Assembly (NCBI GenBank): GCA_963783385.1
Contig: CAWANJ010000003.1
Span: 256,001-320,000, forward strand
Length of the DNA stretch: 64,000 bases
Direction of reading: 5' to 3'
Source of the DNA: an uncultured Gemmatimonadales bacterium
GTDB taxonomy: Bacteria; Gemmatimonadota; Gemmatimonadetes; Palauibacterales; Palauibacteraceae
The position numbers and the translations under genes were made by a program. Under the pieces are notes generated by a model that saw only the letters and a list, made by a program, of their open reading frames with translations, did not search any database and was not told where the DNA came from. This document shows, piece after piece, positions 5,607 through 45,366 of the stretch (position 1 is the stretch's first letter; every line of letters begins with the position of its first letter).

Positions 5607-6928
5607 TCACATCTCATTCGGGGGCCCCGGCCTGGGCAATACGATCCTCGCCACGCAGCCCTGGCCTCCGTCGCGGTTCCGCAGCGTGAGGCTGCCGCCG
5701 TGCGCCTCGGCGATCTGGCGGCTGAGGGCCAACCCGATGCCCGATCCGTCCGGCTTCGTGGTGAAGAAGGGCACGAACAGGTTGGCGGTGTCCGAGATCC
5801 CCGGTCCCTCGTCCTCGACGAGCACCTCGACGTAGAGGGCGGTGACTCGCCACCGGACGCGCACGCCGCCCCCCGTCTCCGAGACGGCGTCGACCGCGTT
5901 GTCCAGCAGGTTGATGAGCATCTGGTCCAGCTGATCCGAGTCGGCCCGAATGACGACGTCGGGGCCCGGCTCCACTCGCACCGGGAGCCGGGTCTCGAGC
6001 TTCGCCACGCGGCCGACCCATGTCTCAATGTCCACCGGATTCAGCTCCGGTGGCGGCAGGCGCGCCAGCCGGGCGTAGGAGGACATGAACCGGCCCAGGG
6101 CGGCGGCCCGGCCCGAGATGATCCCGAGTCCCTGCTCCACGTCCGCGGGCTCGAGCGCCGCCCCGCCGTCTCCGAGGCCGTCCCGCAGGCTCTCGGCGAT
6201 GGAGCGGATGGGGGCGAGCGAGTTGTTGATCTCGTGCCCCAGCACCCGAACCAGTCGGCGCCACGCCTTGCGCTCCTCCTCGCGGAGGACCCGGCTCAGG
6301 TCCGACAGGACCAGCAACGTCTGGGGCCGGCCCTCGTGGCGGAGGCCGGTGCGCCGGATCTCCCAGCGGCCCGAGCCGCCCGGGAAGGTCATCTCGACCA
6401 CCCGCGGCGTGTCGCCGGACAGGAAGGGCGCCAGTCCGACGGTGCTGGCGGGACGGCCCGTGAGCGCCCGGGCCGGCCGGTCCAGGAGCTGGGCCCCGGC
6501 CCGGTTGACCAGCCACAGACGGTCGTCCGCGTCGAAGGCGAACACGGCCACGTCGATCTCCTCGAGCACGCCCCGCAGGAGGGCCGTGGCCTCCAGCGTC
6601 CCGATGCGTTCGGTTCGCAGCGTCTCGCCGAGCGCGTTCACCTCGTGCGAGACGAGGCCGAGCGCCCGGTCGGTGCCCTCGGCCCGAACGCGCATCGAGT
6701 AGTCCCCCCGCGGAAGGCGGCCAGCACGTTGGCCAGGGTCTGGAGGGGCCGGACGAGCTCGTGGTGGAGGACGGCGACGAGGGCGATCCAGGTGCCGACG
6801 AGGAGAATGGACGGGACGACCCGCGCCCACGTCGGCCACGGCGCCCGCCACAGGAACAGGAGAGCCAGCAGAACGGCGGGCAGGCCCGCGACGAGGGCGA
6901 GGGCGGGCAAGCGGCGCTGGTAGCTCAC
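5607..6928 (-). CDS. Sensor histidine kinase (2 close TM helices, HAMP/PAS-like region, NtrY-like HisKA + HATPase), frameshift near 6705
   Basis: N-terminus in ORF 6638..6928. H-box RVLGHEINNSLAPI, N-box NLLDNA, DEGPG and FFTTKPDGSGIGL in ORF 5607..6851. Confidence 0.9.
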
Positions 6929-6938
6929 CGCCCGTCTC

Positions 6939-8304
6939 TCAGGGCTCGAGGCCGTAGCGGTCCAGCCGCCGGTACAGGGCGCTGCGGCTGAGTCCCAGCT
7001 CCCCGGCCGCCCGGCTCACGTTGCCCTCGTGGCGGCGGAGCGCCTTCTGAATGAGGATGCGCTCGGCCTCCTCGAGCGTGAGGCCCTCGAGCCCGGGCGC
7101 GCCCTCGCCCGGGGCCCGGAGGCCGAGGTGGGCGACCTCGATACGCCGGCCCTCCGACATGAGGAGCGCGCGCTCGATCACGTGTTCGAGCTCCCGGACG
7201 TTGCCCTTCCACGGGTGGGCGCGCAGCGCCTCCATGGCATTGGCTGCCAGCTCGGGCACGGGCTCGTCCCGGCGCCGGGCCTCGCGGCGCAGGAAGTGCG
7301 CGGCCAGGGCGGGGATGTCCTCGGGCCGACGCCGCAGCGGGGGCACGTGGATCTCCACCGTGTTGAGCCGATAGAAGAGGTCTTCTCGGAAGTTCCCCGC
7401 CGCCACGGCCGCCGCCAGGTCCGCGTTGGTGGCGGCGATCACGCGCACGTCGGCCGTGCGGGTCCGCGAGGAACCCAGGCGCCGAAACTCCCCCGTCTCC
7501 AGCGCCCGGAGGAGCTTGGCCTGCTGGGCGGCCGGCATGGTACCAATCTCGTCCAGGAACAGAGTGGCGCGATCGGCCATCTCGAGGTAGCCGATCCGGT
7601 CGGCCTTGGCGTCCGTGAAGGCGCCGCGGACGTGTCCGAACAGCTCGCTCTCGAACAGGCCCTCCGGAACGGCGCCGGCGTTGAGGGTCACCAGCGGCCG
7701 ACCCGAGCGCGGCGAGCGAGCGTGGAGCCAGCGGGCTACCACCTCCTTCCCCGTCCCGGGCTCCCCGGTGATGAGCACGTTGGCGTCCGAGGGGCCGGCG
7801 CGCTCGATGAGCTGCAGGACCGGCTGCATGGTGCGCGACTCGGCGACCAGCTCCGGCAGGTCGCCCTCTCGCGCCTCGCGCTCCACCTCCAGCCGCTCGA
7901 CGCGGCGCAGGGCCCGGGTGAGCTCGACCTGGTTCTGGAGGGTGGCCAGCAGGCGCTCGTTGTCCCAGGGCTTCTCGACGTAGTCGCGGGCGCCGCGGCG
8001 CATGGCCTCCACCGCCCCCTCCACGCTGCCCCAGGCCGTCATCACCACCACGGAGAGCGTCGGATCCAGGCCGCGGACCGCCGACAGGAGGTCGAGGCCC
8101 TCCTTCCCCGAGGTGGTGTCGCGCGTGTAGTTGAGGTCGAGGAGGGCGAGGTCCAGCTCGCGGGCCTCGACGGTGCGCAGGACGGCCGCGGGCGACGTGG
8201 CCGTCTCGATCTCGTAGCCGTGCCCCTTGAGCAGGAGACGCAGCGCCTCCAGCACGTCGCTTCTGGTCGTCGGCGACCAGGATGCGGGGCGGCGGCTCGC
8301 TCAC
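6939..8304 (-). CDS. Sigma-54-dependent response regulator (REC-AAA+-Fis HTH, NtrC family), frameshift near 8260
   Basis: GTG 8304 overlaps the ATPase stop. RILVADD, phosphoacceptor LLDLNY, GEPGTGKE, ESELFGHVRGAFTDA, FREDLFYRLN, WKGNVREL and a C-terminal HTH. Confidence 0.93.
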
Positions 8305-8972
8305 GCCGGCGGGTCCACGATCCATCCGTCTTCCAGCTGGATGACGCGGTCGCTGCAGGCCGCCACCGCGGGATCGTGGGTCACCTGGATGATGGTCGTT
8401 CCCTCGCGGTTGAGGCCCGAGAGCAGGTCCATGATCTTCTCGCCCTGGCTCGAGTGCAGGCTCCCGGTGGGCTCGTCGGCCAGGATGAGGCTCGGCTCGG
8501 CGATCACGGCCCGGGCCACGGCCACGATCTGCTGCTGCCCGCCCGAGAGCTGGGACGGGAACAGGTCCTTCTTCCCGACGATGTGGAACTGGTCCAGCAT
8601 GTCGGCCACCCGCGCCTCGCGCTCGGCGCGCGGGACGTCCCGGTAGGAGAGGGGGATCTCCAGGTTCTCGGCGACCGTGAGGTCGTCCAGCAGGTGGTAC
8701 TGCTGGAATACGAATCCGATGTGCTCCCTGTGGAGGCGGCTCCGCTCCTTGTTGGAGAGCTCGTGCACGGGCGAGTCGAGGAAGCGGTACTCCCCCCGGT
8801 ACGCGCCGTCCAGCATGCCGAGGATGCCCAGCAGGGTCGACTTCCCGGCCCCGGAGGGCCCCATGATGGTCACGAAGTCGCCGGCCCGGACGTCCAGGTC
8901 GATGCGGCGGAGCACGAAGGTCTCCCCGCCCTTGTAGCCGTAGGACTTCTCGAGGTTGCGTAGCTGGATCAA
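8301..8972 (-). CDS. ABC transporter ATP-binding protein (MacB/LolD-like), second ATPase of the unit
   Basis: GPSGAGKST, LSGGQQQ, LILADEPTGSLHS, VTHD; 223 aa. Confidence 0.93.
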   Translation of the reverse strand: MIQLRNLEKSYGYKGGETFVLRRIDLDVRAGDFVTIMGPSGAGKSTLLGILGMLDGAYRGEYRFLDSPVHELSNKERSRLHREHIGFVFQQYHLLDDLTVAENLEIPLSYRDVPRAEREARVADMLDQFHIVGKKDLFPSQLSGGQQQIVAVARAVIAEPSLILADEPTGSLHSSQGEKIMDLLSGLNREGTTIIQVTHDPAVAACSDRVIQLEDGWIVDPPA

Positions 8973-9019
8973 GGAAGAGCGCTCCGTTTCATGTGGACGG
9001 TCCGCGATGACGCCGGCAT
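8969..9019 (-). other. Bridging mini-ORF (16 aa, MPASSRTVHMKRSALP)
   Basis: ATG directly follows the permease TAG; its TGA overlaps the TTG start of the ATPase (TTGA). Confidence 0.3.
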
Positions 9020-11473
9020 CTACCGATCACGATCCCCGGGCGGCCGACCCTCGGCCCGCAGCGCCACGAGCGGGTCGACCCGTGTGGCCCGCAGCGCCGG
9101 GACCAGGCAGGCCGACAGGGTGGCCACGAGCGTCACGCCGAGCGCGACCCCCACGGTCCGCGGATCCGTCGGCGCCACGCCGAACAGCATGCTCCTCAGA
9201 TAACGGTTCAGAACGACCACGCCGATCATCCCAAGGATAGCCCCCCCCGCCGTCAGGCGCAGACCCCGGAGCAACACGCTGCGCAGGATGGCCCCCCGGC
9301 CGGCCCCGAGTGCCATGCGAATTCCGAACTCCCGCGTGCGTTCCGACACCGCATACTCGATCACCCCGTACATCCCGACCAGCACCAGGATCAGCGCGAC
9401 GCCCGCCACGCTCCCGAGCAGCACCGCCCGGAATCGCTGGGGGGCCACGCCCCGGGCGATGTCGGCGGCCAGCGTCGAGATCTCCGGGACGGGTTGCCGC
9501 GGGTCCACCGAGCGGATCGCCCGGCGCAGCGGTCCAGCGAGCACGCCCGCTCCGAGCCCGGAGCGCACGAGAAAGACGGCCTGGTGGCCCATCGTGATCT
9601 CCGGGACGGTCGACGGTCGCTGCCTGAACGGTATGTAGAAGCCCGGTCCCGGATCCCTGGCCAGGCCGCCGCCGCGGATGTCGGCCGCCACGCCCACCAC
9701 GGTGAGCCAGGCGTCGTCGCCCTCCTCGAAGCGGATCCGTCGACCGATCGGATCGCGGCCCGGGAAGGCCTCCCGCGCCATGGCCTCGTCGATGATCGCC
9801 ACCCTGGTGGCATCGCGGTCGTCACCCTCCCGGAACGAGCGGCCCCGGAGCATCGGGATCCCCACCGTCCGGAAGTAGTCGGGACTGACGACCCCGTACT
9901 GCGCCTGTCGCGCAGCGGTCTGTTCGACACCCTCGACCACGTAGTCGCGGATCGCGTGCCCGCGGTCGATGGGCAGGTTGTTGGCGAGCGCCGCGTGCTC
10001 CACGCCCGGCACGGCGCGCAGCCGCTCCAGGGTCCGGCGATAGAAGGCATCGAGCTCCGTCACGCCCTCGAAGCGCGTGGGAGGGATCCGGACCGCCACC
10101 GTCAGCACGTCCCTCGTGCGGAAGCCGGGGTCCCGCCCCGTCAGCAGGAGAAAGCTGCGCACCAGGAGCCCGGCCCCTACCAGGAGGACCAGGCCGAGGG
10201 CGATCTCCGTGATCGCGAGGCCTTCGCTCACCCTGTGGTGGCGGCCGGAGAGCGAGGGGCTGCGCCCGCCTTCCGCGAGATCCTCGTGCAGCGATCGCCG
10301 AGCGGTGAGGACGGCCGGGACGATCCCGAACAGGCAGCCGGTGGCGATCGACGTGCCCAGGGCGAAGAGCAGCACGGTGAGGTCCACGTGGACCTCGCCC
10401 AGGCGGGCCACGCCCGCCGGCGCCGCGTGCAGCAGCAGTCCGAGAGCCGGATGCACGACGAGCAGGCCCGCCAGGCCACCCAGCAGACACAGGACCAGGC
10501 TCTCCGTCATCAGGCGCTGGATCAGGCGGCGCCGGCCGGCACCCAGCGCCGCACGGATGGCCATCTCCCGGCGCCGCGCGTTGGCCCGCGCGAGCAGGAG
10601 GTTGGCGACGTTGACGCAGGCGATGAGCAGGAGAAGGGCCGTCGCGAGCTGTAGCAGGATCAGCGCCGTGCGGATGCCCCTCACCATCTCCGACTTGAGA
10701 GTGGCGAGCCGAAGTCTCCAGCGTTCGTTCGAGGCGCTCTCGGGGTGCCGGCTCCTGAACATCGAGAACTCATGGTCGAGAGCGGCCTGCGCCTGCTGGA
10801 CCGAGACACCGGGCTTCAATCGCGCGAGAGGGATGACCCACATCATCCGACCTTCGTCGTCCCGTGGCCGCAGGGCGAGCGGCGTCCAGATCCCCGGATC
10901 GTCGACGCGAGGCCCGAGCTGACGGAATCCGCGGGCGGTGACCCCGACGACCCGATGCGGCCTGTCGTTGAGCCGCACCGTTCGCCCCAGGATGTCGCGG
11001 CGCCCCGCGTACCGCGTCTGCCACACCCGGTAGCTGAGGATGGCCGCGGCAGGTGCGCCCGGCCGGGCGTCGGCGGCCGTGAAGTCACGGCCGATCGCCA
11101 TCCCCGCGCCCAGGAGCCCGAGGAGATCGGGCGTGACGCGCGATCCCGCCAGCTGGTAGGCGCGGTCCCCGTCGGTGATGGCGAACGGCTCGGGGGAGTA
11201 TGCGGCCACCCCCTCGAAGATCGTCGAACGGCGCTCCAGGCCCATCGGAATCTCGGCCGGGCTCCACGGCGCCTGTCCCAGGACCACCAGCTCCCCGGAT
11301 TGGGGGTAGGGCAGCGGCCGCAGGAGCACGGCGTCGACGACGGTGAACAGGGCCGTCGTCGCGCCGATTCCCAGGGCCAGGGTGAGGACGGCGATGACCG
11401 TGTAGCCAGGGCTGCGGCGGAGCTGCCGCAGCGCGAAGCGGAGGTCCTGGAGGAGGGCGTCCATGCGTGTCAC
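9020..11473 (-). CDS. ADOP-like duplicated MacB/FtsX ABC permease (array member 14, intact)
   Basis: 817 aa; [31 protein letters not shown], two FtsX domains, [13 protein letters not shown]. Confidence 0.93.
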
Positions 11474-11553
11474 CGCCTCGGCAGCGTGCGGTCCGACCGC
11501 GTCGGGGCGTTCCCGATCGATCTCCGAGCGGCCGTCGCTCCCTCCTCACTCAT
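11470..11553 (-). other. Bridging mini-ORF (27 aa, [27 protein letters not shown])
   Basis: Starts within ATGAGTGA at the end of member 13 and ends in a GTGA overlap with the start of member 14. Confidence 0.35.
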
Positions 11554-14008
11554 GACGGAGCGCCTCCATGGGGTCGATTCGGGTCGCACGGCGGATCGGC
11601 ACCCAGCAGGCCAGGGTCGCGGTCGCCGCCAGTACGAGCGCCGCGGCCACGAACGGCGCGGGATCCAGCGGCGAGATCTCGTACAGCTGGCCGCGCAGGA
11701 AGCGGCTGAGGGCCGCGGCCATCAGGAGGCCGGCGCCGAGCCCCAGGAGCGTGAAGCGAAGACCCTCGGCCAGCACGAGGCGGACGAGGTCTCCGCGGCG
11801 GGCACCGATCGCCATGCGGAGCCCCATCTCCCGTGTCCGTCCGGCCACGGAATAGGCCAGGATGCCGTAGAGCCCGACCGCCGCCAGCAACAGGGCGAGG
11901 ATCCCGAACGTCCCCAGGAGGACGGTGCTGAAGCGGTCCCGGGCCGTCACCCGGCTCAGTCGCTCGTCCATGGTGCGGACGTCCCACAGCGGGAGGCCGG
12001 GGTCGAGGTCCCGGACTACCGAGCGGGCGCTCGCCGCGAGCGCGTGCGGATCACCGGCCGACCGCGCGACCAGGTAGTTGGAGCGGTAGGAGAACTGGGG
12101 GTACGCCAGGTAGACGCCCGGCCGGGCCGGTTCCCGGAGGCTTCCTCCCACCACGTCACCGGCGACGCCCACCACTTCGGCCCACCCCTCCGAGGCATCC
12201 CACACGCTGAGCCGGATGCGCTGTCCGACGGGGTCGCGCCCGGGCCAGTATCGGTCGGCGGCGGCCCGGGTCACGATGGCCACCCGGGGCGTCCCTTCGC
12301 GGTCGCCCTCCTCGATGGAGCGACCCTCGACGATGGGGATCCCCATCGCGGCGAAGTAGCCGGCCGACACCATGTTCAGCCAGACCTCGTGCCCCTGGCG
12401 GTCGGACGTCGTCTCGCCCCGGATGCCCATGCGCACGTGGTCGCATCCGCCGCCCGCGACCGCGTCCGCGTGGGCCGGGAGGCAGTTGGCGACGGCGGCC
12501 GTCTCCACGCCCGGGCGCGCCTGCAGCCGGTCGACCGCCTCGGTGAACAGGGACGCGGCCTCGGCCCCCGAGTACCCCTGGCGGGGCACGTTCACCCACG
12601 CCGTGAACACGTGGTCGGGCCGGAAGCCCGGCGGCGTCGCGCGGAGCTGACCCAGGCTCCGGAGGAGCAGGCCCGCCCCGATGAGCAGCACCGTCGCCAC
12701 GGCGACCTCGGCGACCACGAGCACGGCGCGCGGTCCGCCCGCCCGGCGTCCGAGACCCGCGGACCCGAGCATGGTGGGGGCGTCGTGCCGGGTCGCCGCG
12801 ATCGCCGGCGCGGCCCCGAAGGCGAGGGCGGCCACGACGGCGACCAGGAAGTTGAAGGCGAGGACCGGTTCGGACAGGCCGAGCCCCTCCAGGGTCCCCG
12901 GGGCGGCGAGCGCCGCAGGTCTCAGACCGCGCACCAGGGACAGCCCGCCCCAGGCCACGAGGAGGGCGGCCCCACCGCCCAGGACGCCCAGCACCGCGGA
13001 CTCCGTCAGGAGCAGGCGGAGCAGGCGCGCGCGGCTGGCACCGAGCGCGACGCGCAGACCCAGTTCGCGGGACCTTCGAACGCCCCGCGCCAGGAAGAGG
13101 TTGGCCAGGTTGCTGCACGCGATCAGGAGCACGCAGCCGACCGCGGCCAGCAGGATGAGGAGCATGCGTCCGAGCGATCGGTCGATGCCGATGACTGCGA
13201 GGGATCTGGCGGCGAGGCCGACCTGCACGGGGCCGAAGGCGTCGGTGAACGGAATCCGCTCCGACACCGCCCGCGCGGCCGATGCGAGCTCCGCGGTCGC
13301 CAGGGGCGCCTCCGCCCGCGGGACCCGCGCGACCACCGAATGCCAGAAGGATAGCCGCTGCTGGAGGCGGTTCCTGAACACCAGCGTCGGCGCCATGGTG
13401 ATGGGCACCCACACGTCGGCCTCGCCGGAGAGGCCCGAGAACCCGGCCGGCATGATGCCGACGATCGTGAGCCGCACGCCGTTCAGGGTCACGGGCCGGC
13501 CCAGCGCGCCCGGGTCGCCGCCGAAGGCCGTGTGCCACAGGCCATCGCCGATGACGGCCACCGCCCCGGCGCCCGGCGCGGCGTCCTCGTCCGGGGCGAA
13601 CGTGCGACCGTGCGCGGCCGGCACCCCCAGCACTCCGAAGTAACTGGCCGACACGAGCTCGACCCGGGCCCGCTCGGGGTGGCCGGCGGCCGACAGGTTG
13701 TAGGTCAGCGCGTCCGGCGTGTAGGCGGCGACCGTGATGTCGCGGGCCGCATCCCGGAACGCCTCGTACTCCGGATAGGACCAGTAGCGCATCGAGTCGA
13801 CGGTCCCGCTCGGCTGCGTCAGCGTCGGCATCACGACCTGGAGCTGGTCGCTGTCCGGATAGGGCGGCCGGGCCAGCAGCACGGCGTACACGGCGGAAAA
13901 CACGGCCGTGTTGGCCCCGATCCCGAGCGCGAGGGTGAGCACGGCGACGACGACGAAGCCGGGCCTACGGGCCATCTGGCGGAGCGCGAAGCGGAGGTCC
14001 TGGATCAT
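11546..14008 (-). CDS. ADOP-like ABC permease (member 13, intact)
   Basis: 820 aa; same architecture, ends [13 protein letters not shown]. Confidence 0.93.
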   Translation of the reverse strand: MIQDLRFALRQMARRPGFVVVAVLTLALGIGANTAVFSAVYAVLLARPPYPDSDQLQVVMPTLTQPSGTVDSMRYWSYPEYEAFRDAARDITVAAYTPDALTYNLSAAGHPERARVELVSASYFGVLGVPAAHGRTFAPDEDAAPGAGAVAVIGDGLWHTAFGGDPGALGRPVTLNGVRLTIVGIMPAGFSGLSGEADVWVPITMAPTLVFRNRLQQRLSFWHSVVARVPRAEAPLATAELASAARAVSERIPFTDAFGPVQVGLAARSLAVIGIDRSLGRMLLILLAAVGCVLLIACSNLANLFLARGVRRSRELGLRVALGASRARLLRLLLTESAVLGVLGGGAALLVAWGGLSLVRGLRPAALAAPGTLEGLGLSEPVLAFNFLVAVVAALAFGAAPAIAATRHDAPTMLGSAGLGRRAGGPRAVLVVAEVAVATVLLIGAGLLLRSLGQLRATPPGFRPDHVFTAWVNVPRQGYSGAEAASLFTEAVDRLQARPGVETAAVANCLPAHADAVAGGGCDHVRMGIRGETTSDRQGHEVWLNMVSAGYFAAMGIPIVEGRSIEEGDREGTPRVAIVTRAAADRYWPGRDPVGQRIRLSVWDASEGWAEVVGVAGDVVGGSLREPARPGVYLAYPQFSYRSNYLVARSAGDPHALAASARSVVRDLDPGLPLWDVRTMDERLSRVTARDRFSTVLLGTFGILALLLAAVGLYGILAYSVAGRTREMGLRMAIGARRGDLVRLVLAEGLRFTLLGLGAGLLMAAALSRFLRGQLYEISPLDPAPFVAAALVLAATATLACWVPIRRATRIDPMEALRHE

Positions 14009-14064
14009 CTCAGTCTCCGGGCGTGGGCTGGGGGTCGGTGCGAGGTCCGCGGCCGGGCCATCAT
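14005..14064 (-). other. Bridging mini-ORF (19 aa, MMARPRTSHRPPAHARRLR)
   Basis: ATGA overlaps at both ends (14064-14061 and 14008-14005). Confidence 0.35.
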
Positions 14065-32808: not shown

Positions 32809-32810
32809 GC

Positions 32811-32921
32811 TCACTCCTCCGGCGACGGGCACATGGGCTCGGTCCCCGCGGCCGGCCGGGCCGGCGCACGGAAGATCGCGAGGTTGCGGCGAGCGCGGGC
32901 CGACCGTCCGACGGCTGTCAC
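32811..32921 (-). pseudogene. Collapsed permease relic / bridging mini-ORF (36 aa)
   Basis: [36 protein letters not shown] resembles the family tail PARRAARxDPMxALREE*; GTGA overlaps at both ends. Confidence 0.55.
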
Positions 32922-35344: not shown

Positions 35345-37836
35345 GCCGGAGCGCCTCCATCGGGTCGATGCGCGCCGCCCGACGTGCGGGAAGCCAGGTG
35401 GCCGCCAGGGCCACGCCGGCGAGGAGGAGGGCGGCCAGCGCGAAGGTGGCCGGATCGAGGGTCGAGACGCCGAACAACATGGAGCCGAGGACCCGCGTCA
35501 CGGCCACGGCGCCCGCCAGGCCGAGGCCGACGCCGATGACCACCAGCGCCAGGTTCTCCCGGATCAGGAGACCCACCACCTGGCGGGGTCGGGCGCCGAT
35601 GGCCATTCGAAGGCCGATCTCCCGGGTGCGCTGCGCGACGGCGTAGGCCGTGATGCCGTAGATGCCCACCAGCGCCAGGAGGAGAGCCAGCCCCGCGAAC
35701 AGGGTTAGGAGCGTCATGCCCTGGCGTCGCGAGGCCGTGGAGCGCGAGAGCTCCTGGTCGAGACTCACGATCTCGCCGATGGGCTGGCCCGGGTCGATGC
35801 GCCGGACCGCCGACCGCACGGCCCCCGCCAGAGCCAGCGGGGTCTTGCGGGCCTTGAGGACGACCCACATCTGCGGGATCTCGCCCGCCTGAAGGACCGG
35901 CAGGTAAACCTCCGGCATCACGGTCGACTCGAGGGACGAGTAGTGGACGTTGCCGATGACTCCGATGACCACGGGGTGGGCATTCCCGATGCCGGGCATT
36001 CTCACCGGAAGGGTCTTCCCCACCGCGTCCTGGCCGGGCCACAGCTCGTCGGCCAGCGCGCGATTCACGATCACGACCTTGCGGGAGTCCGATCGGTCCG
36101 CCGGCGTGAAATCCCTTCCGTGGAGGGCGATTCCGGTGGCGGCGAAGTAGCGCGGTCCAACCACGCCGAACCGGACGAGCATGAACTCCCGCCCGGCGTC
36201 CGGTCGGATCGTGCGCGGGTCGAAGGCGAAGACGTTGACGCTCCGTGTGAGGGGAAGCGTGCGCGACAGACTCACCGCCGCGACGGCCGGATCGCGGGCC
36301 AGTGTCGTGGTCAGCGTCCCGAAGAAGTCGTCCTGTTGCCGCACGGTCGGATAGCGCGACGGTGTGAGCCTGACGCGCGCCGCCAGGACGTCCCGCGTGT
36401 CGTAGCCCGGGTCCACCGACATGAGGCGGATGAAGCTCCGAACCAGGAGCCCGGAGCCGACCACGAGAACGAGGGCCAGGGCCAGTTCCGCCGCGACGAG
36501 GGCGCTGTGGGTCCGCTTTCGTCGCCTGGATCCGGTGGTCGCGGTGCCTTCGGCCCTGAGGGCCTGCTCCATGTCGAAGGTCGTGGTCCGAAAGGCCGGG
36601 AGCAGGCCGAAGGCGAGGCCGGTGATGACGGATAGCCCAACCGCGAAGGCGAGGACGCCCGGGTCGATCCCGACCTCGCTCGCTCGCGGCACGTTCGTCC
36701 ACACGGCCAGGCCGGCTGCCAGTCCCCAGCGGCTCAGCAGCACGCCCAGCATCCCGGCCACCAGCGCCAGGAGCACGCTCTCGGTCAGGAGCTGCCGGAC
36801 CAGCCGACCGCGGTCCGCGCCCAGGGCTCGACGCACCGCCATCTCCCGGCGGCGCTCCGTGGCGCGCGCGATGAGCAGGCCGGCGGCGTTGGCGCAGGCG
36901 ATGAGGAGCACGAGCGCTACCGCGCCGAACAGGACGTACAGCGACGATCGCGCGTCCCCCACGACCGCCGCCTTGAGCGGCCCGATCTCCATTCGGAGGG
37001 ACCCGATCGCGGCGGCCGTCGGCGCGCCGGCCGGGGGCGGACCCTGGGCGCGCATCTCCACGCGCCGCTCGCCGCCGCTTCCCGGCTTCTCCCCTTCCTG
37101 GATGTGCCGGTTCAGGGCCTCGACGTCCGCGCGAGCGCGCTCGAGCGTGGCCCCCGGCGCGAGCCGCGCCACGTTCTGGAACGCGTAGACGTACCGTCCG
37201 AACTCGAGCTGCGGATTCGACCGGAACGCCTCCCCGATCGGGACCCAGAGCTGCGTCTCGTCGCTCGGGAAGCCGAAGCCGCGCGGCATGACGCCCACGA
37301 CGGTGAAGCTGCGGCCATCCAGGCTCACGGAGCGGCCGACGATCGTCGGATCGGAGCCGAAGTCCGTGACCCACATTCCTATGGCTCAGCACCGCGACAT
37401 GCGCATTTCGCTCGGAGTCCGTGAACGAGCGACCCACCGCGGGCGAACTGTCCAGGACCCGGAAGAGATCGGGCGAGACGACCGCGGCCCGGACCTCACG
37501 GGCCTCGTCGGCCAGGGCGAGGTTGAATCGCCGGGAGCTGTACGCCGCGACGCCGCTGAAGTCGGACGTGAGCTTCCGGGCGTCCTGCACGTCCGGATAC
37601 GACAGTCCGCTGCGGAAGGACGCGCCGCCCCGAGAGGAGAGTCTCGTGAGGTCGACCAGCCGATCCGCCTCCGGGTAGCGCAGCGGCCGAAGGAGGACCG
37701 AGTCCACCACGCTGAAGATGGCCGTGTTGGCGCCGATCCCGAGTGCCAGCGTCAGGATAGCCACGACCGCGAATCCGGGGCTCCGTCGGAGCTGCCGGAT
37801 CGCGAAGCGGAGGTCCTGGCGGAGCGTGTCGAGCAC
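35337..37836 (-). CDS. ADOP-like ABC permease (member 3, one frameshift near 37377)
   Basis: N-terminus in ORF 35341..37836, remainder in ORF 35337..37376. Confidence 0.9.
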
Positions 37837-37838
37837 GG

Positions 37839-37928
37839 TCAGGTCTCCCGGACCAGGCAGGGGACGCGGTGAACCCGGACGACCGTGAGCGTCGGGGCGT
37901 CGAACCGGAGCCGCCGCGCCTCACTCAT
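37839..37928 (-). other. Bridging mini-ORF (29 aa, MSEARRLRFDAPTLTVVRVHRVPCLVRET)
   Basis: Starts within ATGAGTGA at the end of member 2 and stops 2 nt before the GTG of member 3. Confidence 0.35.
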
Positions 37929-40317
37929 GGCGCAGTGCGTCCATCGGATCGGTGCGCGCGGCCCGGCGGGCGGGTAGCCACGCGGCCAGTCCCGCCACGG
38001 CGAGAAGAGTCATCCCGGCGGCTCCCAGGATGGCCGGGTCGCCCGGCCGCACCCCGTACAGCAGGGACGCGAGCGCGCGGGTCGTCGGCAGGGCGACCGC
38101 GATTCCGATCGCGACCCCGAGCGCGCCGACCGCGAGTCCCTGGCCGACCACGAGGCGGACCACGCGCCGGCGGTCGGCTCCCAGGGCGATCCGGATCCCG
38201 ATCTCGTGCGTCCGCTGCGCCGCCAGGAAGGCGATCACGCCGTAGATGCCGATGGCGGCGAGGACCAGGCCGAGGACGCCCAGGAGGGTCAGGAGGGTCG
38301 TGTTGAAGCGCCGGGTCGCCGTCGAGCGGCGGATGATCTCGTCCATCGTGCGCGGCGCCGTCAGGGCGAGCAGGGGATCCACCGAGGCGACGGCCCGGCG
38401 CACCTGGGGCGCGAGCCCCATGGCCGGCACGGAGCCGCGGACCACCAGGTACTGCGACCTCTGAGATCGCTGGCCCTCCGGATAGTAGACCTCGTCGGCG
38501 ACCTCCCGGTCGAGCCCGTTGGCGTGGGTGTCCGCCGTGACCCCGATCACCGTGTAGGCCCGGTCCCCGTCGCAGTGGGTGAGGCGCCGGCCCAGGGGGT
38601 CGGCGTCACCGAACAGGCGGTGGGCCAGGTCGGAGTTGATCACGACGACGCCCGGTGCATCCGCTACGTCACCCGGGCCGAAGGTCCGTCCCCGCAGGAG
38701 CGGGATCCCGAGGGTCGAGAAGTAGTCCCCCGTGGCCACGCGGAGGTTGGCGTCCACACCCACACGGCTTCCTTCCCGCCGGGCTCCGCAGTCGTAGCCG
38801 GACGCCCCGATCGGGATGCGCGAGACGAGTGCCGCCGAGGCTACGCCGGGGACCGCGCCCGCCGCGTCGTGGATGCGCTCGAAGGCGCTCCGGACCTCCC
38901 TCGCGGAGGGATACCGGGAGGCCGGGAGCTCGGTGGCCGCGACCAGCACGTCGCTCGGATCGAAGCCCGGAGAGACACGGCCCAGAAGGACGGCGCTCCG
39001 CACGAGCAGTCCGGCGGCCACCAGCAGCACGAGGGCCACCGACACCTGGGCGACCACTAGGGCCGATCGGAGCCGCGCGGAAACGTGACCGGCGCCCGAG
39101 CGCGAGCTCTCCCGGAGCGTGCCCTGCGGCTCGACGCGGGCCGCGCGGAGAGCCGGCAGGAGACCGAACAGCACGCTCGAGAGGAGGGCGAGTCCGACGG
39201 CGAAGGCCACGACCGTGCCGTCGACCGACGTGCCCTGGAGCCGTGGCACGCCGGCGGGGGCGCGGGTCACGAAGTAGCGCACGCCTGCCCACGCGACCGC
39301 CAGGCCGACGGCGGATCCCGCGAGCCCCAGGACGAGGCTCTCCGCGAGCATCTGGGACACGAGCCGGCCCCGATCGGCCCCCAGAGCGCCGCGGATCGCC
39401 AGCTCCGACCGGCGCGCCACGCCGCGGGCCAGCAGGAGGTTGGTGAGGTTGGCGCAGGCGATGAGGAGCACGAGCCCCACGGCGCCGAACAGGATGAGGA
39501 TCTGGTCGCGCACCGTACCCACCACCATGTCGCGCATGGGCCGAGCGACGATGTGTCCGTCGAAACCGCCGTCCGGGTACTGGCGAGCCAGGCGCGTCTC
39601 GATCCGTGTGAGCTCGCGGACGGCCGCCGCGGCCGTCACCCCGGTGCGCATCTTTCCCACGACGGCGAGCTCGTGGTCTCCATGCTCCGCTCGCTCGGAC
39701 GGACCGAACACGAGTGGCACGTAGACGAGATTCGGCCTGTCGGAGAGGGCGTAGGCCGGCGCGGCGACCCCGGCCACCGTGTACGGAGCCCCGCTGAGCG
39801 TGATCGTGCGGCCCACGACCGAGGGATCGCCCCCGAATTGCGACTCCCACAGCGAATGCGACAGGACCACGACGTGCGGCTCTCCGGGATCGGCGTCGCG
39901 CGGAGCGAAGTAGCGGCCCGCGCTCGGCTGGATGTAGAGGGTCTTGAAGTAGTCCGCGTTCACGGCCAGGGCCTGGAGCCGCCGGGGCTCCCCGGTGCCG
40001 GTCAGCGTGAACGCCCCGTAGCCCCACGCGGCGAACGACTCGAACGAGCGAGAACGCTCCTGCCAGGCGGCGAAGTTGCCGAAGGTCACCACCATGCCGT
40101 GGGTGTCCTGGGGCCCATTGCGCTCGCGGAGCTCCAGCAGGCGACCCGCGCCGGCGTAGGGCAGCGGCCGAAGCAGCACCTCGTGGGCCACGCTGAACAG
40201 GGCGGTGTTGGCGCCGATGCCCAGCGCGAGGGTGAGGATGGCGGCCAGGGCGAACCCCGGGCTCCGTCGGAGCTGCCGGAGCGCGAAGCGGAGATCCTGG
40301 CGGAGCGTGTCGAGCAT
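37921..40317 (-). CDS. ADOP-like ABC permease (member 2, intact)
   Basis: ATG 40317 ([13 protein letters not shown]), TGATG-coupled to member 1. Confidence 0.92.
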   Translation of the reverse strand: MLDTLRQDLRFALRQLRRSPGFALAAILTLALGIGANTALFSVAHEVLLRPLPYAGAGRLLELRERNGPQDTHGMVVTFGNFAAWQERSRSFESFAAWGYGAFTLTGTGEPRRLQALAVNADYFKTLYIQPSAGRYFAPRDADPGEPHVVVLSHSLWESQFGGDPSVVGRTITLSGAPYTVAGVAAPAYALSDRPNLVYVPLVFGPSERAEHGDHELAVVGKMRTGVTAAAAVRELTRIETRLARQYPDGGFDGHIVARPMRDMVVGTVRDQILILFGAVGLVLLIACANLTNLLLARGVARRSELAIRGALGADRGRLVSQMLAESLVLGLAGSAVGLAVAWAGVRYFVTRAPAGVPRLQGTSVDGTVVAFAVGLALLSSVLFGLLPALRAARVEPQGTLRESSRSGAGHVSARLRSALVVAQVSVALVLLVAAGLLVRSAVLLGRVSPGFDPSDVLVAATELPASRYPSAREVRSAFERIHDAAGAVPGVASAALVSRIPIGASGYDCGARREGSRVGVDANLRVATGDYFSTLGIPLLRGRTFGPGDVADAPGVVVINSDLAHRLFGDADPLGRRLTHCDGDRAYTVIGVTADTHANGLDREVADEVYYPEGQRSQRSQYLVVRGSVPAMGLAPQVRRAVASVDPLLALTAPRTMDEIIRRSTATRRFNTTLLTLLGVLGLVLAAIGIYGVIAFLAAQRTHEIGIRIALGADRRRVVRLVVGQGLAVGALGVAIGIAVALPTTRALASLLYGVRPGDPAILGAAGMTLLAVAGLAAWLPARRAARTDPMDALRHE

Positions 40318-42738
40318 CACTCCTCCCGCAGGGCCTTCATGGGATCCACTCTGCCCGCCTGCACCGCCGGGCGCAGCGCGGCTAGCAGCGCGCACGTGCC
40401 GAGCACCACGACCGCCGTCGCAAAGGTGACCGGATCCTCGGTCGGAACGCCGTGGAGCGTCCCCCGTAGCGCGCGCGCGAACAGGAGCCCGCCGGCGATT
40501 CCGGCCAGGCCCCCGACCGCGATCATTCCGGCGGCGTCGCCGAGCACCCACAGGACGACGCGACGCGGCGACGCGCCCAGGGCCAGGCGCATCCCGATCT
40601 CGCCGGCGCGGGCCCGGGTCGTGTACGCGATGAGGCCGTACAGGCCGAGCACGGCCAGGAGCATCGCGACCACCGCGAACATCGACACGACCAGCATCTC
40701 GAATCTCGGCTGCACGAGCTGGGCGTCGATGTGGGCGCGCATGGTGCCCAGGTGGGACGCCTCGAGGTCGGGGTCGATGCCGGCCAGTGCCCGCCTCACC
40801 GCGGGAGCGAGCGCGGCGGGATCGCCGTCGGTCCGGATGACGAAGTAGGTGGCCCAGCGCGTCCGCTGCCGGTTGGAGAGGTAGATCTCGGGCTCGATCG
40901 CCCGGTCCGGCAGGAACGGCTGGACGTCGGCCACGACGCCGACCACGCGAACGGTCGGGGCGCCGTCCAGCTCCGGCAGGGCGAGCGTCGCTCCTACCGG
41001 GTCTCCATCCGGCCAGAAACGGGATGCCATGGCCCGGTCGATGACCGCCACGGTCGGCGAGCCGGTGTCGTCCGACTCGCGGAACGTGCGGCCTCGCAGC
41101 AGCGGCTGACCCAGGGTGCTGAAGTAGTTCGGGCCGGCGTCGTACCAGGCCACGCCGGGAGCCTGGTCCCGGGTCCAGCCGCGCCCCTGGACGAGGAGCG
41201 GGGTGAGTCCATCGCCGCCGCCGAACAGCGGCCCGGCGGACACCGTCCCCACCGAGCGGACGCCCGGCAGCCCCTCCAGCCGAGCGTCGATGCGCCGGTA
41301 GAGGCTCAGCACCTGGGGAGGCTCCGGGTACTTCCCCGTCGAGGCGAAGGTCCAGAAGGTCAGCAGGTGCTCCGTGTCGAACCCCGGCCGCCAGTCCAGC
41401 AGGTTGGTGAAGCTGCGGAGCAGGAGGCCGGAGCCGGTGACCAGCACGAGCGCCAGGGCCAGCTGGCCGGCCACGAGGACGCGCCTGGACCGGCGCGTCT
41501 TACGGTCGACCGAGGTGCCCCGCGCACCGCGGAACAGGTGCGCGAGATTCTGCTCGCGGAGCCGCATCGCGGGCAGCAGTCCCACCGCGAGGCCGGTGAC
41601 CACGGTGACCAGGCCGGCGACGAGCAGGACGCGTCCGTCCACGGCCACCCGGTCCAGACGCGGGATCCCGGCCGGAGCGAGGGCCCGCAGCACGTGAACG
41701 CCCCACACGGCCAGGAGCGCTCCGGCGCCGCCCCCCAGCACGGCCAGCGCCAGGCCCTCGACGACGAGCCCGGAGGCCACCCGGCCGCGGCCGGCTCCGA
41801 GCGCGAACCGGACGGCCATGTCGCGCCGCCGGCCCACCGCCCGCGCCAGGACCAGCCCCGACACGGTGGAGCACGCGAGGAGCAGCACGAGCGCGACCGC
41901 GCACAGGAGGGCCAGGAGCAGGGGGCGCGCCGAGCGAACCAGGTACGCGCGCATCGGGTGCACGTCCACGCTCCAGCCGCGGACGGCATCCGGATAGGCC
42001 GCGGCCAGCGCGGACTCGGCCCGGCGCAGCTCGGCCCGGGCCTGTTCGACGCTCACGCCGGGCGCCAGTCGGGCGGCGGACGCGAAGCCGCGCCAGTTCC
42101 GGTACTGGGCGGTCGCAGGGTCCCACGGGAGCGGGATCCACAGCTGCGCGTGCTCCAGTCGGGGAACCGAAGTGCCCCGCGGGAGCACGCCGATCACCCT
42201 GTAGCTGTCGCCATCCAGGACCAGCGTCCGGCCCAGCACGTCCGGGTCCCCGCCCAGCTCGCGGCTCCAGAACTCGTGGCTCACGACGGCCACCCTGCCG
42301 TCCCCGTCGGGCGGGCCGTCGGCTGCGGCCAGCATGCGGCCGCGCTCGGGCGCGATGGCCAGGGCGCGGAGGAAGCCCGGCATGGCGATCCCGACGGTCA
42401 CGCCCCGGGCCCCCGCGGCCGTCCGCAGCGCCATCGACTCGGTGCGGGCCGCGCCCATGACCTCGATGCTCGGGCTGCTGCGGGCCCATTCGACCAGGTT
42501 CGGGGTGGCCACCGCGCAGTAGTCTCCGGATCGCGGGCCGGTCTCGCACAGCGTGACCACGCGACCCGAGTCCCGGATGGGAAGGGGTCGGAACAGGATG
42601 TGGTCCACGACGCTGAACACGGCCACGCTGGCCCCGATGCCGAGCGCCAGCACGAGAATGGCGGGCAATGCGAACCCCGGACTCCGCCACATTCTGGCGG
42701 AGGGCGAAGCGGAGGTCCTGGCGGAGCGTGTCGAACAT
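40317..42738 (-). CDS. ADOP-like ABC permease (member 1, frameshift near 42693)
   Basis: [15 protein letters not shown] with SD GGAGG, continuing in ORF 40317..42692; ends AGRVDPMKALREE. Confidence 0.9.
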
Positions 42739-42797
42739 CGGCGTGCCTCCGTCGCGCGGCGCTTCTCGGCGCCGGCGGGTGCGCGGTGGGTCTCGGT

Positions 42798-42817
42798 GGC
42801 CGGGCGCGCGCCCGGCC
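42798..42817. repeat. Perfect 20-bp palindrome between the ATPase and the first permease
   Basis: GGCCGGGCGCGCGCCCGGCC. Confidence 0.5.
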
Positions 42818-42851
42818 GGGTGTGGTCGCCGTGCTGGGATCTACGGAACGA

Positions 42852-43637
42852 TCACAGCTCCACCTCGTAGCCGCTCTCGCGAAGCTCCTCTATGACCTCG
42901 GGTGAGCGCACGCGGTCCTCGACGATCTGGCCGTCGAACAGGTGGATCTGGCGCCCGGCGTATTCGGCGTAGCGGGGGTCGTGGGTGACCATGCAGATGG
43001 TGGCGCCGTCGGCGTGGAGCTCGCTGAGGAGCTCCATCACCGCCTCGCCGTTGGTGGAGTCCAGGTTCCCGGTCGGCTCGTCGGCCAGGAGGATGAGCGG
43101 GTCGCCGACCACGGCGCGCGCCACGGCCACGCGCTGCTGCTGGCCGCCGGAGAGCTGGGCCGGATAGTGCCGCGTGCGATGCGACATGCCCACGCGCTCG
43201 AGGGCCTTCATGACGCGCTCCTTGCGCTCCGCCGAGGGCATGTCCCGATAGGTGAGCGGGAGCTCGACGTTCTCGAACACGTTGAGGTCGCCGATCAGGT
43301 TGAAGGCCTGGAAGATGAAGCCGATATGACGGTTCCGGATCGTGGCGCGCTGCGAGGCCGACAGCCGCGCCACCGGCGTGCCGTCCAGGTCGTACTCGCC
43401 CTCGGTGGGGGAGTCCAGGAGCCCCAGGATCGAGAGGAGCGTCGTCTTCCCGCAGCCGGACGGCCCGGCGATCGAGAGGAACTCGCCCTCCTGGATCGCC
43501 AGGTGCACGTCGGAGAGGGCGTGCGTCTCGACCTCCTCGGTGAGGAACACCTTCTTGACCCCCTCCATCCGGATGAGGGGCGACGTGGCGGTGGCGGCGC
43601 CGGCGCCCGTCTCGGAAAAGGACTCGCTCTGGTTCAT
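42852..43637 (-). CDS. ABC transporter ATP-binding protein (MacB/LolD-like), first ATPase
   Basis: [34 protein letters not shown]; SD GGAG. Confidence 0.95.
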
Positions 43638-43680
43638 GGCGTCTCCCCTGGAGGGTGGGTCGGACCGGCTCCGCGCCGGT

Positions 43681-45108
43681 TCACTTGAGCTTCACGCGGT
43701 CCACGTCCCCGTAGCGGGACATGTCCGAGAGGATGACCTCGTCGCCGGCCTGGAGGCCGGCGAGGACCTCGACCTGGTCGACCGAGGCGCGGCCGAGCTT
43801 GACCGGCACCCGCACCGCGGCGTGCCCGCCGTCGACCAGCTTGAACAGGCCCACGGTGCTCCGGGCCTCCCCGTAGGTGGGACGATCCACGTGCAGCACG
43901 TCGGTCAGGTGGTCGATGATCACGGTGCCGTCGACGCTGAGGTCGGGGCGCGCGGCGCGTGGCAGGTCGCCGCCCAGGTGGACGTCGATCTGCACCGCGC
44001 CCTGCTGCACGTTGGGGTCGATCCGGCTCACGGTGCCCGGCACCGTGTCGGTCCTGAGGTCGACGAGCACCCGCTGGCCGAGCTGGACGTCCCGGATCTG
44101 GCTCTGCGGGATGTCGATCTGGGCCTTGAGGGAGCCCGGCTGCGCGACCCGGGCCAGGGCCGTGCCGGACTGGACCCACTGGCCGGGCTGGAGCGTGAGG
44201 TCCTGGAGGATGCCCGAGCCGCCCGCCGTCACCTTCATGGAGGCCACGCGCCGCTCCTGGTACTCGTAGATGGACTTGAGCCGGGCCACCAGTTCCCTCT
44301 GCACCGAGAGCTGATTCTCCATGGTCCGTGCGAGGAGGTCGAGCTGCTCCTTCGCCGCGTCGAGCGCGGCCCTGGCGGCGTCCGCCTGCTCGGCCACGCG
44401 CTCCGCGTCGTTGCGGGCGATGAGCTGCCGGGCCGCCAGCGCGGAGTCCACCTGGGCCTCGCGCTGCGCGTTGAGCCACGTGGCCCGGGCGCTGGCCACG
44501 GCGGAAGCCTGAGCCGCCTTCTGCGATCCCAGCGTCCGCTGGAGCTCGACCAGGCCGCCCTGGGCGCTGGTCCACTGCTGCTGGGCCTGGAGGGCGGCCA
44601 GGTCCACGTCGGGGTTGCTGAGTTCCAGTACGACCGTGGAGGAGTCGACGGTTTCGCCGGCCTGCACGTGGACCCGGTCGACGCGGCCGGCGGTGAGGGC
44701 CGAGATGTAGTGGATGTGCTCGGGGACGAGGGTGCCGGGACCGCGCACCGAGATCGTCATGTCCCCTTGCTGGACCGTACCGGTGAGGATGGAGTCGCGG
44801 TCCACGGAGGGCGCGGCCGGGCCGAGGCGGGAGAGGACGATGCTGATCACGATCACGACCGCGACAGCCGCGGCGCCGATCAGGATGTACCGTCTCCGCT
44901 TGTTCGTGGGCTCGCGGGCCACGTCCATGCGCGAGCCCGCCACCGCGGAGGGGCGGTCGCGCGGGTCGCGCCGTCCGGACCGTCCCGAATCCGCGTCGTC
45001 CGCCAGGCGCGGCCCCAGGGGACGCGGTCCGGCGTCCGCTTCCGGGTCCTTCTTCCCACCGGGAAGGGCGCGGGCGGCGCCCTCGAGGAGGTCGCGGAGT
45101 GACTTCAT
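43681..45108 (-). CDS. Periplasmic adaptor subunit (MacA/HlyD-like membrane fusion protein)
   Basis: Basic patch plus TM anchor (KRRRYILIGAAAVAVVIVISIV), lipoyl-like barrel, coiled-coil hairpin, GLQAGDEVILSD. Start is 45108 or 44928; the ORF-track start 45255 overlaps the sigma-54 promoter. Confidence 0.9.
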   Translation of the reverse strand: MKSLRDLLEGAARALPGGKKDPEADAGPRPLGPRLADDADSGRSGRRDPRDRPSAVAGSRMDVAREPTNKRRRYILIGAAAVAVVIVISIVLSRLGPAAPSVDRDSILTGTVQQGDMTISVRGPGTLVPEHIHYISALTAGRVDRVHVQAGETVDSSTVVLELSNPDVDLAALQAQQQWTSAQGGLVELQRTLGSQKAAQASAVASARATWLNAQREAQVDSALAARQLIARNDAERVAEQADAARAALDAAKEQLDLLARTMENQLSVQRELVARLKSIYEYQERRVASMKVTAGGSGILQDLTLQPGQWVQSGTALARVAQPGSLKAQIDIPQSQIRDVQLGQRVLVDLRTDTVPGTVSRIDPNVQQGAVQIDVHLGGDLPRAARPDLSVDGTVIIDHLTDVLHVDRPTYGEARSTVGLFKLVDGGHAAVRVPVKLGRASVDQVEVLAGLQAGDEVILSDMSRYGDVDRVKLK

Positions 45109-45239
45109 GAGCGCTCGCTTCGGGGCGCGGCGGCGGACGGCGGTCGAGACGTCATCGGGCGTGCTCTCCCCTGTGCGGTCGGGGTCGCGGTTTCGGAGCG
45201 CCGCCGACGGGCGGAGCCGTTCCGTCGGGGCTCTGCAGG

Positions 45240-45254
45240 GCAACGGTCGTACCA
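45240..45254 (-). promoter_or_regulatory. Sigma-54 -24/-12 promoter
   Basis: Minus strand reads TGGTACGACCGTTGC against consensus TGGCACG-N4-TTGC, with exact GG-N10-GC spacing. Confidence 0.82.
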
Positions 45255-45282
45255 TGCGCTCATAGCATCGTACGATATTGTG

Positions 45283-45295
45283 TTACAGTGAGTTG
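45283..45295. promoter_or_regulatory. Possible IHF site
   Basis: AT-rich island between the promoter and the activator boxes; TTACAGTGAGTTG partly matches WATCAR-N4-TTR. Confidence 0.4.
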
Positions 45296-45330
45296 GCGGT
45301 GTCGCACGATCCGGCGCCCGGCGGCTGGAG

Positions 45331-45366
45331 TGTCCGATTCCGGGACCCGGTGTCCGGAAACGAACA
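45331..45366. promoter_or_regulatory. Tandem upstream activator sequences for a sigma-54 activator
   Basis: TGTCCG-ATTC-CGGGAC and TGTCCG-GAAA-CGAACA are imperfect palindromes with starts 20 bp apart, about 80-110 bp upstream of the -24 box. Confidence 0.68.

Follow-up and report, generated by a model that had tools for sequence, protein, structure and literature searches.

In a 64,000-nucleotide (nt) stretch of the genome of an uncultured Gemmatimonadales bacterium of the family Palauibacteraceae (assembly GCA_963783385.1, contig CAWANJ010000003.1, positions 256,001 to 320,000; hereafter the window), we found a cluster of about 40 kb that codes for 14 permease units of the ADOP family together with one adaptor, two ATP-binding cassette (ABC) ATPases and one two-component system. 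The cluster is a real, unusually long version of a widespread module. On balance, we favor reading it as a two-component-regulated, probably sigma-54-dependent envelope pump of the MacB type (type VII ABC transporters), in which the permeases would share one motor pair and one adaptor and most of the lesions that interrupt the genes would be artefacts. The whole set is on the minus strand and, read from 45.25 to 5.6 kb of the window, follows the order -24/-12-like promoter element, HlyD-type adaptor, ATPase A1, 14 ADOP units, ATPase A2, NtrC-type activator and histidine kinase (Pfam and NCBIfam). These parts, their order on one strand and their close coupling had been proposed in a first-pass annotation of the sequence, and family matches, a custom ADOP profile and the lengths of the gene junctions bear them out.

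Because the window has a G+C content of 73%, lists of its open reading frames (ORFs) are crowded with spurious frames. Real genes were placed by G+C at third codon positions (GC3) and frame statistics, by tblastn with intact copies, and by a custom ADOP profile searched against all six-frame fragments; the profile was built on seven copies then seemingly intact, one of which (unit 14) was later found to be frameshifted at codon 16. Tblastn and the profile located exactly 14 ADOP-like units between 9020 and 42738. Junctions between the genes of the array range from an 8-nt overlap to about 113 nt (with the corrected start of unit 14), and the stop of A2 and the start of the activator share the bases GTGA. 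Internal promoters or terminators, named in the first-pass annotation as what might split the array, did not appear: consensus scans, a weak test at 73% G+C, found no terminators or sigma-70-like promoters above shuffle expectation. Other matches to the -24/-12 consensus were rejected as internal sites, being located within coding sequence or lacking the GC dinucleotide. We infer that the cluster is co-transcribed from a single sigma-54 promoter.

The assignment of the permeases to ADOP (TIGR03434) holds in hidden Markov model (HMM) scans, where the eight units with near-full ORFs (1, 2, 5, 7, 10, 11, 13 and 14) score 782-944 bits against a cutoff of 622.3; units 3, 4, 6, 8 and 12 were assigned, as fragments, by the custom profile alone. 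Uninterrupted, full-length units account for 6/14: unit 1 (9020-11473, 865 bits), unit 2 (11546-14008, 832 bits), unit 5 (18918-21371, 944 bits), unit 7 (23869-26313, 782 bits), unit 11 (32918-35344, 855 bits) and unit 13 (37921-40317, 897 bits), the start of the last overlapping the stop of unit 14 by 1 nt. The initial count of 14 permeases is thus correct for the units present, but just these six are uninterrupted and unit 9 is half-size. Every intact unit contains two MacB_PCD and two FtsX stretches (Pfam). In a comparison of 10 full-length units, with the intact homologues P0121 and P0241 substituted for units 12 and 6, pairwise identity is 33-41%, and the mean by region falls from 69% in the N-terminal helix and first transmembrane (TM) helix to 46-47% in the two FtsX bundles and 30-32% in the two periplasmic domains. 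The impression at first reading that TM and terminal parts are conserved and periplasmic domains divergent is therefore quantitatively sound. Members of the ADOP family are described as "orphan," that is, without an adjacent ABC ATPase gene, a descriptive family trait that stands outside the HMM definition. It fails here, since ATPase genes flank the array at 42852-43637 and 8301-8972, and ATPase genes also adjoin ADOPs in most of 80 related loci.

These 80 loci (cited below by L numbers) were fetched with 10-kb flanks by adaptor alignment and annotated with profiles of the window proteins; the window's own genome is not among them, the best adaptor identity there being 59-60%. Most come from Gemmatimonadota and Acidobacteriota, with some metagenome-assembled genomes (MAGs) labelled Verrucomicrobiota, Eisenbacteria or Proteobacteria. 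Their common pattern is adaptor-A1-[ADOP]n-A2-activator-kinase, with n from 0 to at least 4-5 within the 10-kb view. An A1-type ATPase comes first in 71 of the 75 loci with any downstream feature. Eight loci have n = 0 (L033, L037, L038, L041, L045, L047, L064 and L076), L012, L050, L054, L060, L062, L077 and others have n = 1, and L059, L079, L022 and L074 have n = 2-3. At least four ADOPs follow the adaptor, on either side of an interposed ATPase, in 13/80 loci, and 12 of these 13 arrays run past the 10-kb view. An NtrC-like activator gene is in view in 25/80 loci (21 downstream, 4 upstream). This survey of synteny and array length, suggested with the first-pass annotation, shows that the number of ADOPs is not invariant. 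It also removes the apparent uniqueness of the architecture, given the 13 loci with arrays of at least four ADOPs and a 42-kb ADOP cluster in Psychroflexus torquis (PMC3914696). The proposal of motor and adaptor parts shared by many permeases gains from the constant adaptor, A1, A2 and two-component frame with its variable number of ADOPs; that the parts are actually shared we infer. Variants of the frame were also seen, among them one with A1 and A2 adjacent and the ADOPs after them (L015, L019, L043 and L075) and one with a second A1-type ATPase after the first ADOP (L003, L007 and L055).

The 14 units are, as judged from trees and identities, old and separately conserved lineages. In a tree of 107 full-length ADOPs, we found no window-only clade; the common ancestor of the window units covers 105/107 leaves. 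Unit 7 is nearest to L052_d1 (distance 0.77) and unit 12 to L057_d2 (0.65), while the nearest window unit is always at a distance of at least 2.24. Identity to orthologues is 58-75% for unit 12 and 73-95% for unit 6. Considering that the periplasmic domains are kept among orthologues (59-66% identity in 11 orthologues of unit 12, 81-82% in 6 of unit 6) and are only 30-32% identical between units, the array is a stable set of distinct permease types rather than a rapidly diversifying one. At the protein level, orthologues of the adaptor (P0003, 81%), unit 12 (P0122, 75%) and unit 6 (P0244, 85%) have the same value, 133,029 bases, given as their longest contig, which suggests that this array, or some portion of it, is present in a single relative. 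A recent tandem burst is ruled out by the absence of a window-only clade, units 9 and 10 alone being somewhat closer to each other. Duplication during assembly was likewise rejected, because identity between units is just 33-41% and every unit has orthologues of its own.

The two ATPase genes, both intact, are A1 (42852-43637; a MacB/LolD/DarD-like nucleotide-binding domain [NBD], ABC_tran 117.8 bits) and A2 (8301-8972), which is 48% identical to A1. They represent two distinct conserved, position-specific classes. In the related loci, all 66 ATPases found directly after the adaptor are A1-type, this class being preferred by 130-213 bits, and 29/34 of the later ones are A2-type. Class motifs, taken from 73 A1 and 30 A2 sequences, differ in the D-loop (LDS in A1, LHS in A2), in the signature (LSGGQQQR and LSGGQQQL) and in the H-switch (MVTHDP and QVTHSE); Walker A, Walker B-E and the switch histidine are kept in both.

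The AlphaFold2 model of unit 7 is confident (pLDDT 87.6, pTM 0.81); it has 8 TM helices and two periplasmic domains and consists of two MacB-like halves fused head to tail. Foldseek matched it at a probability of 1.00 to YbbAP, MacB, LolCDE, BceAB and HrtBA, which places unit 7 among proteins of the MacB-type TM fold with Porter/Sabre periplasmic domains. The best whole-chain matches in the PDB are to YbbAP (9ge6/9ge7, E 6e-19), and MacB, LolCDE and BceAB each match one half of the chain. At the sequence level, phmmer searches of the PDB reach MacB entries alone (5nik, 5lil and 5gko). YbbAP, which works by mechanotransmission, has two YbbA NBDs for each fused, pseudosymmetric YbbP (PMC12646458). 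Considering this 2:1 stoichiometry, the fused pseudodimeric ADOP chain and the two ATPase classes, one ADOP probably binds one A1 and one A2 as a heterodimer. The two ATPases of the first-pass annotation are thus confirmed as two intact genes, but would be better read as one heterodimeric pair than as two motors.

Upstream of the array, the adaptor (43681-45108, periplasmic HlyD/MFP type) matches HlyD_3 and HlyD_D23 and lies beside transporter genes, as in tripartite pumps of the MacAB-TolC type. Its RND_mfp score of 85.6 bits is below the cutoff of 94.9, and NCBIfam gives a weak DarC-like match. The sole large intergenic gap upstream of the adaptor holds a sigma-54 type -24/-12 promoter-like element, TGGTACGACCGTTGCC (45239-45254). 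Read as TGGTAC-N5-TTGCC from 45254 to 45239, it agrees with 9/11 consensus positions, and the GG and GC dinucleotides are both present. Scores of at least 9/11 were found in 21/78 regions upstream of related adaptors, compared with 25/334 control segments. Many high-scoring elements in relatives are located 12-60 nt before the start (e.g., TGGCACGCCGGTTGCT in L078), and in L034 and L036 the element is perfect and lies about 330-355 nt upstream, a distance similar to that in the window (roughly 310 nt). An inverted repeat found by repeat search 75-115 nt upstream of the -24 element (45330-45367; 14-nt arms 10 nt apart, 86% complementary) is a candidate binding site for the activator.

The longest adaptor ORF starts at 45255, and its ATG is overlapped by the promoter-like element, so the true start should be further downstream. 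The likely candidates are M50 (45108), as in P0001, a protein of 475 amino acids (aa) that is 99% identical to the adaptor, and the family-conserved M110 (44928), which is invariant in the adaptor alignment. The intervening 120-310 nt (44928-45238, minus strand) may be either a leader or an N-terminal extension of the adaptor, with similar spacing in L034 and L036, and has no Rfam match. Neither Rfam families nor tRNAs were found anywhere in the window, and a riboswitch or other RNA in the leader is not supported.

Downstream of A2, an NtrC-type sigma-54 activator with receiver, AAA+ and HTH domains (6939-8304, GTG start) is followed by a histidine kinase (5607-6940, 5' end approximate). The activator ORF at 6939-8255 matches Sigma54_activat (218 bits), Response_reg, AAA_lid_14 and HTH_8 (Pfam). 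It is broken by a frameshift at 8262, directly after the DD pocket ILVADDQ; the corresponding N terminus reads IL[VIA]ADDQ in 17/22 relatives, or in 18 if ILVADDD is included. The kinase, open at 5607-6851, is broken at 6711 by a frameshift that separates the TM/HAMP part from the remainder. A short loop connects its two TM helices, after which come HAMP-like, PAS and HATPase parts, and in the kinases of relatives the two TM helices are about 10 residues apart and are followed by HAMP-like, PAS and catalytic parts. Such an arrangement leaves no room for a periplasmic sensor domain, and the kinase therefore probably senses through the membrane or the transporter, as in modules of the Bce type.

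In the mechanism that we propose, a constant frame of one adaptor, A1, A2, an NtrC-type activator and a kinase would receive a variable number of ADOPs, here 14, between A1 and A2. Each ADOP, as a single chain with two MacB-like halves, would bind two NBDs, most likely one of each ATPase class, and would dock to the shared adaptor. The 14 units would then be alternative pumps for different periplasmic or outer-leaflet substrates, driven by one motor pair through one adaptor. The kinase, sensing through the membrane or the transporter itself, and the activator would switch on the -24/-12 promoter ahead of the adaptor.

Several observations weigh against this reading. The bare -24/-12 motif occurs in the window at chance level (13 matches with up to two mismatches, 13.2 expected), and most related loci score just 7-8/11, overlapping the controls. 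The sigma-54 promoter of the first-pass annotation is thus supported by its position and its conservation in relatives, not by the count of bare motifs. The scans for internal terminators and sigma-70 promoters have low power at this G+C content. The activator has GAFTDA in place of the canonical GAFTGA loop; GAFTDA is the family norm (18/22 relatives; SFTDA in 3 and AFTGA in 1). Five of the later ATPases in related loci are A1-type, and L035, L051, L053 and L072 have an activator and a kinase in view but one ATPase and no A2; the A1/A2 pair is therefore not universal. Finally, no gene for an outer-membrane duct (TolC-like) was found among the scanned ORFs of the window, although a duct gene may lie at another site in the genome, like tolC in Escherichia coli.

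The rival that survives best concerns the interrupted genes. Ten are affected: the two regulators and eight permeases (by frameshifts or a deletion). Alignment of the DNA to the best intact homologous proteins, with frameshifts allowed for, gave eight frameshifts in unit 3 (14061-16474; between 15571 and 14610), five in unit 4 (16480-18915; between 17601 and 17116), about 9-10 in unit 6 (21374-23848), four in unit 8 (26320-28736; at 28547, 28288, 27066 and 26512) and one each in units 10 (30360-32808), 12 (35337-37836) and 14 (40317-42738). The lesion in unit 14 is near 42696, in codon 16, and the frame is open from an internal ATG at 42692. Unit 10 (TIGR03434, 845 bits) has lost its own stop by a frameshift at 30438 and reads into unit 9 as one 1371-aa ORF (28717-32832). 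Unit 9 itself (28717-30357, 546 aa, 521.7 bits on TIGR03434 and thus below the cutoff) lacks profile positions 166-456, and what remains is half-size and 4-TM-like. It is closest to unit 10, with 260/546 residues identical (48%, compared with the usual 33-41% between units), and its deletion, being in frame, may well be real. Unit 9 looks as if two internal repeats had recombined.

Intact, near-identical proteins were available for comparison with units 12 and 6. Unit 12 matches the 832-aa P0121 at 829/832 positions; it departs from that protein at the start codon and, within a patch of about 30 nt, by two substitutions and a 1-nt insertion (at 37377). Over codons 1-490, unit 6 is identical to the 823-aa P0241. 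A stretch of about 320 nt with 8 indels comes next, the part after codon 490 has about 45 substitutions in all, and in the final 170 codons P0246 (150/169) is a better match than P0241 (138/170). Judged by these alignments, unit 6 is a mosaic with a dense cluster of indels at the junction of its two parts (21377-22376, minus strand). The single lesions in units 12 and 14 (37378 and 42694, minus strand) share the context GAATGTGG, with an extra A before ATGTGG; this 8-mer occurs at just those two sites in the window, and GATGTGG occurs 12 times.

We consider it likely that most of the lesions are consensus or strain-mosaic errors. The lesions in the ten genes are indels that come in clusters, and they are absent from the near-identical proteins P0121 and P0241 of other assemblies. 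Once frames are corrected, no in-frame stops remain in units 3, 4, 6, 8, 9, 10, 12 and 14 or in either regulator, and the identity of the broken units to their homologues is normal (e.g., 421/787 for unit 3). The two regulators and two sortilin-like genes outside the array, none of them ADOPs, are hit as well. In addition, the loci L045, L059, L078 and L080, from long-read MAGs, have their ATPase, kinase, activator and ADOP genes fragmented in the same manner, which fits common indel errors. Reassignment of a stop codon was ruled out as the cause of the broken frames, since the lesions shift the frame and correction leaves no stops.

Were the frameshifts real, both regulators and eight permeases would be dead in this strain. 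The locus would then be decaying: frameshifts in the activator and kinase would have silenced the operon, and the permeases would now be gathering lesions, leaving 6 intact genes and 8 pseudogenes. We regard this as unlikely, while granting it more weight than the two alternatives discussed below. The lesions are widespread, with both regulators, 8/14 ADOPs, a nearby PadR-linked ADOP and two sortilin-like genes all interrupted. The patch in unit 12 differs from P0121 solely by changes toward A/T, as new mutations tend to do, and the comparison with near-identical intact proteins covers only 2/8 broken units; both points tell against an artefact. The nearest protein to the adaptor (99% identity) carries an NCBI name that places it in a Candidatus Palauibacterales MAG. 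This order is known from marine sediments, sponges and saline soils, with a G+C content of up to 71.7% (PMC10469786), and its sponge-associated lineages are a further point on the side of decay. Decay is, however, hard to reconcile with the absence of nonsense codons and the normal identity to homologues, with the patchiness seen in unit 6, where 490 perfect codons precede the 8 indels, with the intact versions of units 6 and 12 in other assemblies, and with a coding GC3 signal that continues across the broken stretches.

The reading of the cluster as a pump with a shared motor and adaptor has also to be weighed against an improbable alternative, namely that the ADOPs do not share the adaptor and ATPases and form a depot of independent permeases, dependent on other ATPases or on none at all, with no more than one or two of them working with the neighboring adaptor, A1 and A2. 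ADOPs are indeed widely found apart from ATPases, for instance in PadR-ADOP pairs (hence the "orphan" label of the family description), and the eight loci with n = 0 carry the frame with no ADOP between A1 and A2. However, many genomes have ADOPs placed between A1 and A2, and the junctions are tight or overlapping. The parts expected to dock the NBDs and partners, the N-terminal cytoplasmic helix and the TM regions, are also the most conserved (69% and 46-47%). We know of no activity for a type VII permease without NBDs (MacB, LolCDE and YbbAP families). Least probable of all, in our opinion, is that the system is no efflux pump but a mechanotransmission extractor or activator like YbbAP-TesA, LolCDE or FtsEX, each ADOP extracting a class of lipid or lipoprotein or controlling a periplasmic enzyme: in fold, the ADOP model is closest to YbbAP, a system that extracts hydrophobic molecules for TesA (PMC12646458), no duct gene was seen among the scanned ORFs, and the Psychroflexus ADOP cluster includes a thioesterase gene (PMC3914696), but the best family matches of the ATPase and adaptor are to exporter components (DarD/DarC and MacB), all below cutoffs, and the most constant partner is an HlyD/MFP adaptor, even if the adaptor was the query that retrieved all 80 loci. 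Such adaptors are a hallmark of tripartite efflux.

The closest known systems each resemble the cluster in part. MacAB-TolC, PvdRT-OpmQ and DarCDE have the same MacB_PCD and FtsX domains, an HlyD-type adaptor and MacB/DarD-like ATPases, and the ADOP halves match the MacB permease region. In MacB, however, the NBD is fused to a homodimerizing 4-TM permease, whereas an ADOP joins both permease halves in one chain and the NBDs come from separate genes; moreover, 14 permeases lie in one operon and the scanned ORFs hold no duct gene, unlike MacAB-TolC. The E. coli YbbAP-TesA system (9GE6/9GE7; McAndrew et al. 2025, PMC12646458) shares the single-chain duplicated type VII permease with two Porter/Sabre domains. 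It differs in that YbbP has 10 TM helices (8 in the ADOP model) and a sequence identity of only 14-15%, and in that YbbAP uses two copies of one ATPase, where we found two distinct ATPase genes, and has no adaptor, array or two-component system.

In Bce modules, the kinase senses through the transporter. The BceAB-BceRS system resembles the cluster in the genetic coupling of an FtsX-type permease to a kinase whose two TM helices have hardly any external loop between them, and BceAB is among the fold matches of unit 7. Unlike Bce modules, which have an OmpR-type regulator, the cluster has an NtrC-type sigma-54 activator and an adaptor, and an ADOP has 8 TM helices and two domains compared with 10 and one in BceB. 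By this analogy, the locus may work like a Bce module, but it is not a member of that group.

Large ADOP clusters have been described before. Genomic island 43 of Psychroflexus torquis carries a highly translated 42-kb cluster with 8-10 ADOP paralogues and other transporter and ATP-binding proteins, of unknown function (Feng et al. 2014, PMC3914696). That cluster has permeases of the same family, is similar in size, includes ATP-binding proteins and was seen at the protein level. By its published description, rather than gene by gene, it is distinguished from the present cluster by the 14 units, the Gemmatimonadota host and the defined frame of adaptor, two ATPase classes and sigma-54 two-component system found here. 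Genomes of Dyadobacter carry 28 and 33 ADOP copies (PMC11573002), and the accessible portion of a study of Solibacter paralogues (PMC3174227) contains nothing on ADOPs. The adaptor-A1-A2-sigma-54 frame was not found in print in the literature searched. Large ADOP clusters have therefore been described but never characterized, and the locus is an extreme member of a common, uncharacterized module.

On the other strand, beyond the kinase, a PadR regulator (2451-2789, plus strand) precedes a convergent 15th ADOP copy (3114-5515, plus strand), which is split over 7 frame pieces; the pair spans 2451-5515. All seven PadR matches in the related loci are within 600 nt of an ADOP, in agreement with the link between PadR and orphan ADOPs stated at first reading. 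Several PadR-ADOP pairs are found directly upstream of the adaptor (L023, L029, L040 and L059). At the opposite end, two large sortilin/BNR-like genes (46999-53597, minus strand) are disrupted, one by an in-frame stop at 49267-49269 and the other by several frame changes between 52.5 and 50.5 kb. Lesions thus extend beyond the ADOPs, to both regulators of the array and to these sortilin-like genes. Half of the genes of the window are interrupted, probably by indel errors, and naive ORF calling would consequently misdescribe the array.

Genomes of Acidobacteriota, Gemmatimonadota and some Bacteroidota carry dozens of ADOPs each. These permeases are among the largest paralogous families of soil and sediment bacteria, but neither their function nor their energizing partner is established. 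The cluster and its 80 relatives provide a concrete proposal for such a partner: a conserved adaptor, two dedicated ATPase classes and a sigma-54 two-component switch, combined with a variable number of permeases. A bolder and decidedly tentative extension is that the orphan ADOPs have their missing engine in the adaptor-A1-A2 frame, together with the sigma-54 activator and the kinase that lacks a sensor domain. One heterodimeric NBD pair and one adaptor would then serve swappable permeases, the 14 in cis and PadR-linked ones elsewhere, while the kinase would read the activity of the transporter. If true, this would be a combinatorial envelope pump without characterized precedent. Should the sharing of motor and adaptor hold, it would explain how envelope transport can diversify in these bacteria by permease swap alone.

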